From an uncultured Alphaproteobacteria bacterium (GTDB lineage: Bacteria > Pseudomonadota > Alphaproteobacteria > Rhizobiales > Xanthobacteraceae), in the NCBI GenBank assembly GCA_963736275.1, contig CAVTOP010000017.1:7551-71550 (forward strand): a stretch of DNA of 64,000 nt, written 5' to 3'. The notes below the pieces were generated by a model. It did no database searches. It was not told where the DNA came from and was given only the letters and a program-made list of their open reading frames with translations. Made by a program: the position numbers and the translations under genes. Numbering within the stretch: the first letter of the stretch is position 1; each line of letters starts with the position of its first letter. Positions 17,207-43,224 of the stretch are shown one piece after another.

Positions 17207-17629
17207 ATGCTCTCCGACACCATCAAGACGCTCATCCGCAACGCCTGGGATGACGGCTATCCGTGCCTGGTCGCGACCAATGGGCCGCAGGGACCGAACA
17301 TCACGCCGAAGGGCAGCATGATCGTGTTTGACGACCAGCATCTCGCCTGGTGGGAGCGCAGCAAGCGCGCCGTGCTGGAAAACCTTGGTCACGACAAGCG
17401 CATCTGCGTGATGTACGCCAACTTCAAAGCGCAGCGCGATGGCATCCTGGAGTCGGGCTTCCTGCGTTTCTTCGGCTCGGTCGACTTGCACGAGACCGGG
17501 CCCGTGCGGGAGGCCATCTTCGCGAAGCTGTTGCCGCGCGAGCAAACTCACGCCGGCGCCGAGGCCGGCATCGGTGCGCTGATCAGGATCGAGAAAGCGA
17601 TCGACGCCCGCGGCAAACCGATCATGTGA
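17207..17629 (+). CDS. Pyridoxamine 5'-phosphate oxidase-like FMN-binding protein
   Basis: CLVAT...PNITPKGS...LAWWERS...ENL pattern. Confidence 0.75.
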   Translation: MLSDTIKTLIRNAWDDGYPCLVATNGPQGPNITPKGSMIVFDDQHLAWWERSKRAVLENLGHDKRICVMYANFKAQRDGILESGFLRFFGSVDLHETGPVREAIFAKLLPREQTHAGAEAGIGALIRIEKAIDARGKPIM

Positions 17630-21430: not shown

Positions 21431-21446
21431 TTGGACCGAGGTCCAA
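21431..21446. promoter_or_regulatory. TTGGAC-N4-GTCCAA operator-like palindrome, site 1
   Basis: gtcga-TTGGAC-cgag-GTCCAA, 126 bp upstream of the DUF1254 operon. Confidence 0.7.
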
Positions 21447-21478
21447 CCGAAACTGCCGATCGCAAAATTTCCGATTCA

Positions 21479-22030
21479 CTTTTCAAACAGCCGATGTCGC
21501 TTGGAGCAAGCGCCATCGCCCGTATTCTTTGTCGAGGCCCCGGGCAGGCCCGTCTTCCCTTTGTCTCTCTCCCCTCCGGATGCGAGGGGATGGCGCGCCA
21601 GGGGGCGCTGCCGTAATCGGTTCAATATCCGCATCTCCTTGCGAAGATGCGGAAGCGCCTCCCGGCGCGCCACCCGGACAGTCTTATGTCCGGGCTCATT
21701 TGCGGCCGTCTTCTTCCGCTTCGCCCAATGTCGGAAGCGGAACTGCTGCGCCGGGCCGCGCTTTGCGTTTTCGCGCCTTTGGCTTGCCGCTCCTTCCCCA
21801 CGTTCGCCGGCCCCTTGTGAGTAGCCATTGAGCGTCAGGCGCTTGCGGCAGGCTGCCGGCGGTACTCTGCGTCAGCCAGCTCCTGGCAGGCGGCTCCTAT
21901 TGGCCACCGGGCGGAGCCCCGGCGCCGCCCGGGTGCTTGGGAGGAGCGTTCGTCTCCCGCCCGCGGGCGCCGCATCCGGCTCCATCATCAGACGCCTCTA
22001 GATGACGCCCCTCGATTGAGCCGGACCTGA
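21479..22030. ncRNA. Candidate long structured non-coding element (structured RNA or non-autonomous mobile repeat)
   Basis: At least eight stems in ~550 nt with no credible CDS. Stems are listed in the findings. Confidence 0.45.
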
Positions 22031-22259
22031 TGTGACTACTATCCTATAGGAATAAAGTCAAGAGGCGGTTTGGCTTTCGGTCCGTTACGGAATGCGGTGG
22101 CAGGTTACTCTCGTGCGAACAACTGGCCGCTGAAAGCAAATCTTTGGCGCCGCACAACAGGACGCGCGTCTCGAACTTCCCGTAGATACAGCCGTCCAAC
22201 GATGACGGTCCTGACGCCGCGCCATTCGGTGAAGCGTGGGACACAATGGAAACGTCCCG

Positions 22260-22457
22260 ATGATTGATGTCGATAGTCCACCCCTGGCGCCCATCTGCGC
22301 CGCATGCGGCACGCACTTGATGCTGACCCCCAGCGGCCATCCTTTTTGTACCGATCCGACCTGCACGGACGGATTTGGTACCGACATTCTCCGTCAACTT
22401 TTCGGTGCCGCGCTCAACACCAAGCCGATCAACCTCCACCGGAAACAATCGCGATAA
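22260..22457 (+). CDS. Possible small zinc-ribbon protein
   Basis: CAAC and CTDPTC motifs in a 65 aa ORF; no family recognised. Confidence 0.3.
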   Translation: MIDVDSPPLAPICAACGTHLMLTPSGHPFCTDPTCTDGFGTDILRQLFGAALNTKPINLHRKQSR

Positions 22458-41629: not shown

Positions 41630-42247
41630 TCAGCCGTGATGCGCGACGCCCAGCTTTTCCTCACTGCGGTCGAGGATCAACGGCACGATCAGATCCTCCT
41701 CGTCGTCGAGGTGCCGGACGAGTCCTTTAAGCAACGTTCCGCTTGCGTCGGCATAGTTGTCGCCGCACCGGCGCATTGGGTCCCCGCCCTCCTGCAACGC
41801 GCGCAGCAGCGCGTTCGCCGTCTCGGCGGTGCGCGCCATGTCGGCATGGATGTGGTGGTGATCGCCCTCCAGCACGTCGAAGCCGCGGGCCAGGTGCCCG
41901 TCGGCTGCGCGGAAGATCGGAAAATAATGCAGGTCCTCGATCTGGTGGTGGGCGTTGAGCTGGTCGAGCATGAACTGCAGCCGCGGCACGAACTGGCGCG
42001 CAAACTCCTCCGGTGGAAGCTTGCCGGCGCGGAAATGTGCCGCGATCTGCTCGATCGCAACCGACAGCTCGCGAAACATGTCGTGGCGCGAGAGCCAGAA
42101 ACGCGCCATCTCACCAAGGTTCGGATGGGCGTCCCACTGCTCGCGCGGATAGCGCGCGACCAGGACGCGCAGGTCCTCAGGCCAACCGCTGCGGCGGGCA
42201 AGAGCGAGGGCGTCCAGATCGGCGGAATTGGGGATTTCGATGGTCAC
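41630..42247 (-). CDS. Hemerythrin/HHE cation-binding domain protein
   Basis: WLSRHDMFR, LNAHHQIED..YFP, LEGDHHHIH and RHLDDEED. Confidence 0.82.
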   Translation of the reverse strand: MTIEIPNSADLDALALARRSGWPEDLRVLVARYPREQWDAHPNLGEMARFWLSRHDMFRELSVAIEQIAAHFRAGKLPPEEFARQFVPRLQFMLDQLNAHHQIEDLHYFPIFRAADGHLARGFDVLEGDHHHIHADMARTAETANALLRALQEGGDPMRRCGDNYADASGTLLKGLVRHLDDEEDLIVPLILDRSEEKLGVAHHG

Positions 42248-42300
42248 AGCCGCCTAGATAGTCGTTGCGCGCCGGATTGCGAAGGGCAAACTTGTTCCGC

Positions 42301-43224
42301 ATGAATTCGCCCACCACGGTCGCAAGGCTCGCCTGCGACGAACAGACCGCACGCCGATTGGCGGCATTTCTCGCGGAAAGCCTTGACGCCGAGGACACGG
42401 CCTGTGGGGCCTTTGAGGACGGCGCCGGCGGCTGGCAGGTGGCCATCCATTTTTGCCAACCGCCCGAGGAGACAAGCCTGCGCAGTCTGGTCGCGATCGC
42501 GGCGGGCGAGACCGCGTCGCGACTGCTGACCATTGAGCCGATCACGGCGCGAGACTGGGTGGCGCAAAGCCTCGCCGATCTCAAGCCTGTGCGTGTCGGC
42601 CGTTTTTTCGTGCACGGCGCGCACGATCGCGCAAAATTACGCGCGAACGACATCGGCATCGAGATCGAGGCCGCGCTCGCCTTCGGCACCGGCCACCACG
42701 GCACGACGCGCGGCTGCCTTCAGGCGCTGGCCGATCTCGCAAAGCGCCGGGATATCCGCCGTGTGCTTGATGTCGGCACCGGCAGCGGGATCCTGACGAT
42801 TGCCGCGGCAAGACTTCTTCATGCCCGCATCACGGCAAGCGACATCGATGTGCGCGCCGTCGAGGCGGCGCGCGGAAATGCGCGTTGCAATCACGCAATG
42901 CCCCTGGTCACGTTCGCGCGCGCATCCGGCACGGCGGCGCGCATCATCGCGGCTGCTGCGCCCTATCAGCTGATCTTCGCCAATATTCTGCTGGGCGCGC
43001 TCACGCGGCTGGCCGTACCCCTCGGCAAGTTGACCGCGCCCGATGCCCGGGTCGTGCTGTCCGGCCTGTTGCCAAATCATGCGAACGCAGTGATTGCAAC
43101 CTACCGCGCGCAAGGTCTCGTGCTCGAGAAGCGCATCACGCTGGAGGGCTGGGTCACATTGGTGATGCATCGAAAAACGAAACCGCCCCGGGCGGGGAGG
43201 ACGCCGGGGCGGTTTCGCCGGTGA
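42301..43224 (+). CDS. prmA: Ribosomal protein L11 methyltransferase
   Basis: DWVAQSL, ALAFGTGHHGTT.GC, VLDVGTGSGIL and ANIL. Confidence 0.92.
   Translation: MNSPTTVARLACDEQTARRLAAFLAESLDAEDTACGAFEDGAGGWQVAIHFCQPPEETSLRSLVAIAAGETASRLLTIEPITARDWVAQSLADLKPVRVGRFFVHGAHDRAKLRANDIGIEIEAALAFGTGHHGTTRGCLQALADLAKRRDIRRVLDVGTGSGILTIAAARLLHARITASDIDVRAVEAARGNARCNHAMPLVTFARASGTAARIIAAAAPYQLIFANILLGALTRLAVPLGKLTAPDARVVLSGLLPNHANAVIATYRAQGLVLEKRITLEGWVTLVMHRKTKPPRAGRTPGRFRR
43179..43216 (-). terminator. Intrinsic terminator hairpin
   Basis: 13 bp stem gaaaccgccccgg/ccggggcggtttc followed by gtttttc on the minus strand, downstream of 43269-43466. Confidence 0.6.

Follow-up and report, generated by a model that had tools for sequence, protein, structure and literature searches.

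The window analyzed here, a stretch of 64,000 nucleotides from an uncultured alphaproteobacterium of the family Xanthobacteraceae, very likely contains, on its minus strand, a member of a structured RNA gene family. This family is uncatalogued, given that it corresponds to no Rfam family and that no published description of it was found. The best explanation of the element as a whole, and probably the correct one, is that of a minus-strand structured RNA gene which self-associates, acts in trans, carries a boxA, and exists as gene-converted copies. The original prediction had also proposed a large structured RNA, a reading that is supported by the multiple copies, the strong covariation, and the lack of an Rfam match.

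The limits of the unit (21470-22063, minus strand), which are slightly wider than the interval reported originally (21479-22030), were defined by the alignment of its six copies in the host genome (4.24 Mb, in 20 contigs). These copies, which were recovered by BLAST together with a number of fragments, share 97-99% identity within unrelated flanks, and make the element multicopy. The unit consists of a predicted promoter, a structured RNA of approximately 560 nt, a hairpin, and a boxA. Its right end is sharp, is the same in all six copies, and terminates in AAAGTCAAG, and the left limit of identity varies by copy (21470, 21473, 21507, 21517, or 21563). The far left of the unit contains a conserved motif of 20 nt, separated from the body by a segment that is wholly different among the copies and spans approximately 10-40 nt, with three of them having about 14-16 nt.

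No conserved open reading frame (ORF) and no credible gene was found between 21470 and 22063, where the indels that separate the copies are not multiples of three, in agreement with the earlier view that 21479-22030 holds no credible coding sequence. The covariance models of Rfam 15 returned no match at the gathering score anywhere in the window, and at E-values of up to 10 recovered only chance matches to miRNA-type hairpins, far under their cut-offs, just as no Rfam family could be named at the outset. A search of a plasmid collection returned no match to the unit, and searches of the literature, both by sequence and by topic, located no description of the family. A truncated copy elsewhere in the genome (G000:C20:84-300, L008), which retains the boxA and most of the 3' domain, adjoins low-GC, foreign-looking DNA with a 272-aa ORF. 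Short, REP-like palindromic repeats, of the tagggtgggctaag... and gtcattccgggg... types, are often found directly past the 3' end of the RNA unit in several copies (e.g., L002:1370-1470, L024, L035, and L045), and in the window, the palindrome TTGGACC-GAG-GGTCCAA (21431-21446) lies approximately 25 nt past the end of the boxA, where it would be contained in any read-through transcripts.

The functional strand of the unit is the minus strand. In the helices read on this strand, G·U combinations outnumber those of A·C by 217 to 10 in the 5' domain and by 94 to 8 in the 3' domain (311:18 in total). The alignment folding energies of the minus strand are -56.7 kcal/mol (5' domain) and -41.1 kcal/mol (3' domain), compared with -31.7 and -28.2 kcal/mol, respectively, in the plus strand, and the folding of the single sequence surpasses that of shuffles on either strand, more so on the minus (z = -5.9) than on the plus (z = -3.7). 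The alternative raised in the original prediction, of an element that folds as single-stranded DNA, is disfavored by this strand-specific excess of G·U, together with the promoter.

This promoter, of predicted sigma-70 type (22033-22062, minus strand), has its -35 box, cTTGACT, at 22062-22056, and its -10 box, degenerate here, at approximately 22038-22033, and the start site of the RNA is predicted to be near 22025-22030. Throughout the family, the outer boundary of the unit retains the -35 box (TTGACT/A/C; CTTGAC at the sharp right end), followed by a spacer of variable sequence. The pattern TTGACN-N15-18-TANNNT occurs in 59 of 128 members, with a -10 box of TATAGT, TATAAT, or TATATT, and a TATATA-type -10 box is present in many others. 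This conservation suggests that the unit carries its own promoter, and is presumably transcribed from it. A strict scan of the window copy found no promoter. Its -10 box is degenerate (TAGTAGT-type), which implies that the copies of this genome could be weakly expressed. A palindrome, TCCTATAGGA, is located between the -35 and -10 boxes of the window copy (22040-22055), and TCCTA-N0-3-TAGGA is kept in the promoter spacer of many family members; this spacer palindrome may be an operator through which one regulator could act on every copy. Divergent from the RNA gene, at 22260-22457 of the plus strand, there is a 65-aa ORF with four cysteines (CxxC...CxxxxC), which matches no Pfam family. The possibility of a small cysteine-rich protein partner was rejected, since this ORF is unique in its genome and no small ORF is recurrent beside 151 copies of the RNA.

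The RNA folds into two domains. The 5' domain (21855-22027, minus strand) is composed of the P1 helix (22027-22019 paired with 21983-21974), a hairpin with a palindromic loop, a GNRA-capped hairpin, an invariant apical hairpin (21907-21932), and a hairpin at approximately 21885-21906. The 3' domain (21519-21672, minus strand) comprises a long helix (21591-21609/21654-21672), a nested GNRA-type hairpin (21628-21653), a CCCCUC hairpin (21570-21590), which folds in all 18 of the sequences tested, a purine-rich strand, a hairpin at 21536-21550, and a small pseudoknot. Between the two is a variable linker (21673-21854, minus strand), which is 50-110 nt long in the relatives and is enlarged, exclusively in the copies of this genome, by approximately 150 nt of additional hairpins. 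A direct check located the stems tcccctc/gagggga (21570-90), tggcgcgcc...ggcgcgcca (21591-21672), the nested tccgcatct/agatgcgga, ccgggcgg/ccgcccgg, and ccggctc/gagccgg, and nearly every stem listed in the original prediction proved to be real, most being conserved with compensatory changes in the relatives. Those at 21673-94 and 21714-42 are of narrower scope, as they lie within the linker insert that is restricted to this genome.

The covariation that had been looked for in these stems is strong, with 97% of the cells being paired, in comparison with 42-57% when the partners are slid. The respective proportions are 97.5% and 42-50% in the 5' domain (alignment A3: 35 sequences, 40 pairs), with 96.7% of the cells paired in the 3' domain (alignment A4: 36 sequences, 28 pairs) and 97.1% in an independent set of 99 model-aligned sequences from other genomes, alignments A3 and A4 being based on sequence only. 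The counts of cells changed on both sides, which are inflated by the shared ancestry of the sequences, reach 129 in the 5' domain, against 40 in the shuffles (none of 500 shuffles reached 129), 111 against 35 in the 3' domain, and 447 against 123 in the independent set, where compensatory changes were found at 21 of the 40 pairs.

The pseudoknots covary in a similar manner. In the small pseudoknot of the 3' domain (21541-21544 with 21519-21522), CCCG:CGGG is replaced by CCCC:GGGG in 11 sequences. A long-range pseudoknot is formed by a strand of the apical loop of the 5' domain (RNA CGCCGGG, 21918-21924, minus strand) and the central conserved block (RNA CCCGGCG, 21751-21757, minus strand), approximately 160 nt downstream. 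At least five compensated variants of this loop:block pairing were identified (CCCCGGG:CCCGGGG, CGACGGG:CCCGUCG, CGUCGGG:CCCGACG, UGCCGGG:CCCGGCA, and CCCUGGC:GCCAGGG), and the pairing was not matched in any of 5000 position-specific permutations, a test used here because the generic search for the longest complementary run is too noisy in GC-rich sequences. An RNA of more than 400 nt, with many covarying helices and pseudoknots, and no conserved ORF, belongs with the large ornate noncoding RNAs as a class, which does not imply homology.

The hairpin at 21991-22009 exposes a 7-nt loop with the self-complementary hexamer UCUAGA (21997-22002, minus strand), a candidate site for dimerization through a kissing-loop contact. 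Of the 99 loops of the independent members, 89 contain a perfect palindrome of 6 nt or more, compared with approximately 12 when the letters of the loops are shuffled, and it is kept in at least seven different sequences. The most common form is UCAUGA (40), followed by UCUAGA (20), UCGCGA (12), ACCGGU (10), and UCCGGA (3), while CUGCAG, CUUAAG, CCCGGG, and AACCGGUU occur once each. A one-base insertion breaks the palindrome in two of the six copies of this genome. A 6-nt palindrome cannot pair inside a 7-nt loop, and an intermolecular kissing contact, leading to dimers or larger assemblies, is thus the best reading; a protein operator is disfavored, since it would be expected to conserve its sequence, whereas the loop changes in sequence and keeps its self-complementarity. 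Judged from this pattern of sequence variation, it is reasonably likely that the RNA self-associates through the palindromic loop. The dimerization initiation site of HIV-1 is also a self-complementary loop of 6 nt, which varies by lineage between GCGCGC and GUGCAC. The two cases share a 6-nt palindrome in a small loop, with a sequence that varies among lineages (here UCAUGA, UCUAGA, UCGCGA, and others), although the present case involves the chromosomal RNA of a bacterium, in which dimerization is only inferred.

The left end of the unit (21473-21523, minus strand) is formed by a copy-specific hairpin (arms 21487-21503 and 21507-21523), folded in the window copy from the variable segment (21487-21523), and the boxA that follows it (RNA GGCUGUUUGAAAAGUGAAUC, 21492-21473). 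The motif agrees at 24 of 24 nt with a site approximately 215 nt upstream of the genome's own 16S gene, a site preceded by a strong promoter and, immediately, by a hairpin. This leader site, which reads G(C/T)TCTTTGACAATTGAAT and is upstream of the 16S processing stem, is conserved throughout the order, unlike the rest of the leader. The motif resembles the boxA consensus, GYTCTTTAANA, which is gamma-proteobacterial (PMC5725501). Of 97 family contexts, 33 have it in the sense orientation at 400-700 nt downstream of the -35 box, compared with four in antisense, and roughly two thirds of the members lack it. In the host genome, it is restricted to the RNA copies and the rRNA leader, with a distant version in the ends of a repeat of approximately 150 bp. 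This repeat, of which there are six copies in the genome (L104-L106; C1:~205090-205240, C3:~17360-17510, C3:~178820-178965, C4:~131640-131790, C5:~984370-984520, and C18:~162690-162840), is MITE-like and has no Rfam match; its terminal inverted repeats, GGCTGTGTGAAAA(C/G)T, are similar to the boxA.

[quoted passage not shown] The RNA unit shares with such leaders a boxA of 20-24 nt, the one found in the 16S leader of this genome; the motif lies in sense after a sigma-70 promoter and usually has a hairpin before it. It differs in that the motif comes after a structured RNA of 450-560 nt rather than before a long untranslated operon, is followed by no rRNA processing stem, and is present in only about one third of the members. 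The chances that there is a working boxA at the 3' end of the unit appear to be about even. Given its position 3' of the structured part, it cannot protect the structured RNA itself. No intrinsic terminator was found after the RNA in the window, and only three were found among 26 cases in the relatives.

The family is widespread among the relatives of the host. A covariance model of the right module, which corresponds to the 5' half of the RNA, recovered matches in 70 of the 121 Xanthobacteraceae genomes sampled, representing 38 of 62 genera, with at least 20 matches in the richest genome. Outside the family, the module was found in only eight genomes from the other sampled families of the order (141 genomes in all). 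A DNA search found diverged copies, approximately 70-89% identical, in 21 of 24 congeners, frequently at contig ends. An exact-pattern scan of public genomes recovered mostly Pseudolabrys and Pseudorhodoplanes metagenome-assembled genomes, as well as Methyloceanibacter, and one genome labeled Bradyrhizobiaceae, which fits the Bradyrhizobium-like lineage suggested originally, with most of the named matches being Pseudolabrys or Pseudorhodoplanes. The left and right modules are shared by the relatives, in a constant order, with the variable linker between them. The length of the unit ranges from 401 to 565 nt across the relatives and the host's own copies, with most of the RNAs of the relatives being 420-480 nt long, and that of the window approximately 560 nt.

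The non-autonomous mobile element that the original prediction had offered as an alternative would be MITE- or SINE-like, with hairpins recognized by a transposase whose gene lies elsewhere, and with copies that represent recent insertions. Such an element might be expected to leave six copies of 97-99% identity, with a common sharp right end and unrelated flanks, and the location of many of the relatives' copies at contig ends, together with the boxA-like inverted ends of the separate 150-bp repeat in the same genome, also speaks for it. The unit itself has no terminal inverted repeats, in either a repeat search or the alignment of the copies; its ends, CTTGAC... and ...GAATC, are those of the promoter and the boxA. 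The six copies are not flanked by any shared direct repeat, so that, of the sharp ends and target duplications looked for, only the sharp right end was found, whereas the left limits differ between copies in the manner of gene-conversion tracts. Clean empty sites were sought in five close relatives, in which remnants, hybrids, and an orthologous copy were found instead. The window locus retains only a decayed promoter in one relative (G065), and the C3 locus an internally deleted copy in another (G067). The C7 locus is orthologous in G065, with flanks that are 94-96% identical and a 5' part of the RNA that is of a different type, that is, a hybrid, and it is reduced to a 110-nt remnant in G008. 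The only copy found to be absent from a relative is that of C1, in G011, where the boundary falls exactly at the end of the boxA, as insertion would predict, alongside other differences. No recurrent ORF, transposase-like or other, was found beside the copies, no TnpB gene was recovered from the genome, which is approximately 91% complete, and the excess of G·U is strand-specific. A mobile element is thus quite unlikely, and the near-identity of the copies points to gene conversion among old loci as the better explanation.

This concerted evolution is apparent in the fact that 48 of 54 copies have their nearest relative among the other copies of their own genome, with a mean identity of 0.80 within genomes, and 0.62 between them. 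A second type of RNA, with the same promoter, a 5' hairpin with the loop palindrome UGAUCA, and a different body, was observed in G000:C2:~42100-42612 (L107), G011 (L029), and G065:C6:~70150-70712 (L253). Given that the orthologue of the C7 copy in G065 is a hybrid of the two types, modules are exchanged between families. The age of the loci, the variable tract ends, and this exchange of modules indicate gene conversion rather than recent transposition, although gene conversion leaves the first origin of new loci unexplained.

Two other readings start from the 3' end of the unit. If the unit is a portable cassette of promoter, leader, and antiterminator, the RNA would be a long 5' leader, with Nus factors loaded at the boxA allowing Rho-resistant read-through into the downstream gene. 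The order of promoter, hairpin, and boxA is that of the rRNA leader, there is no terminator after the RNA, and the next gene in the window (DUF1254/DUF1214, 21305-20280) is co-oriented, with its start 165 nt after the boxA. This arrangement is not general, however, as a crude gene call places the downstream gene in the same orientation at only 10 of 21 loci (opposed at 11), and at four of the 10 loci that bear a boxA, and the neighboring genes are unrelated to one another, so that a leader for any particular downstream gene was rejected. The absence of the boxA from two thirds of the members, and a pseudoknotted fold of 450 nt with a self-complementary loop, which far exceeds the needs of a leader, further argue against the cassette, which is considered unlikely. 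Alternatively, the RNA might guide a transposon-derived nuclease or recombinase, in the manner of the omega RNAs of TnpB and IscB or the bridge RNA of IS110, with the copy-specific segment acting as the guide. The family is multicopy, its segment of approximately 10-40 nt is wholly different between copies that are otherwise 97-99% identical, and the best-known multicopy large RNAs are HEARO and the omega RNAs, which are, like the present RNA, large, structured, and bacterial. The variable segment either is part of a hairpin or lies next to one, and what follows it is a conserved boxA rather than flanking DNA; the variable left limits are accounted for by the ends of conversion tracts. In contrast with HEARO/IscB omega RNA (RF02033) and the TnpB omega RNAs, no nuclease or recombinase gene adjoins any copy, there are no IS200/IS605-type ends, and there is no match to the Rfam model of HEARO. 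TnpB was rejected as a partner, given that PF07282 was not found in the host genome (approximately 91% complete); reverse transcriptases are encoded in this genome, none of them near any copy. A guide-type RNA is, overall, highly improbable.

The preferred explanation, a self-associating RNA gene that acts in trans, would operate as follows. Transcription would run leftwards from the unit's own sigma-70-type promoter, at its right end, and the RNA would fold into the conserved 5' and 3' domains, separated by the variable linker and tied together by the long-range pseudoknot between the apical loop of the 5' domain and the conserved strand that immediately precedes the 3' domain. Through the self-complementary hexamer, the RNA may pair with its own copies to form a kissing-loop dimer or a larger assembly, acting in trans as a self-assembling scaffold, rather than as a cis-regulator or a transposon. 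With no intrinsic terminator, the transcripts of about one third of the members, including that of the window, would continue into the hairpin and the rRNA-type boxA, which may load NusB/NusE on the polymerase and render downstream transcription Rho-resistant. The dispersed copies, at old and partly orthologous loci, would be kept alike within each genome by gene conversion. The oligomerization, the binding of Nus factors, and the cellular role are all inferred from these features. A bolder and rather improbable extension is that the homo-oligomers formed through the palindromic loop, whether of RNA alone or of RNA and protein, are also coupled to the Nus-factor machinery via the boxA of the transcript. 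In this case, the strongly promoted copies, which may number 20 or more next to the one rRNA leader found in the assembly, would titrate or deliver NusB/NusE, and would tie ribosome synthesis to the abundance of the RNA. If true, the RNA would represent a novel type of growth control in alphaproteobacteria that live in soil and grow slowly.

The closest known parallels are the ornate noncoding RNAs OLE, ROOL, GOLLD, and raiA, which share with the present family a length of 400-600 nt, a noncoding nature, many covarying helices, pseudoknots, and GNRA-type loops, with no relationship in either sequence or Rfam classification. Most of the known ornate RNAs come from Firmicutes and phages, whereas the hosts here are soil bacteria of the family Xanthobacteraceae. 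The genes of this family are also dispersed and multicopy (at least 20 matches in the richest genome), each with its own predicted promoter, and differ from the ornate RNAs in that their copies evolve in concert and swap modules, about one third of them being followed by an rRNA-type boxA. Cryo-EM has shown that OLE, ROOL, and GOLLD form homo-oligomers (PMC12286853), and the palindromic loop represents evidence, at the level of the sequence, for self-association in the present family.

Only a handful of large bacterial RNAs with an intricate fold have been described, and OLE, ROOL, GOLLD, and raiA each represent a structural and functional puzzle. The family described here is widespread in a major lineage of soil and plant-associated bacteria, with many copies per genome, which have diverged sufficiently for covariation to define the fold, the long-range pseudoknot, and a likely site of self-association. 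With this abundance and a fold defined by covariation, the family can be put to the test at once as a possible new RNA assembly. An unexpected tie to the antitermination machinery is provided by the rRNA-type boxA on its predicted transcripts, and the family as a whole provides a case of concerted evolution in dispersed RNA genes beyond those of rRNA and tRNA.
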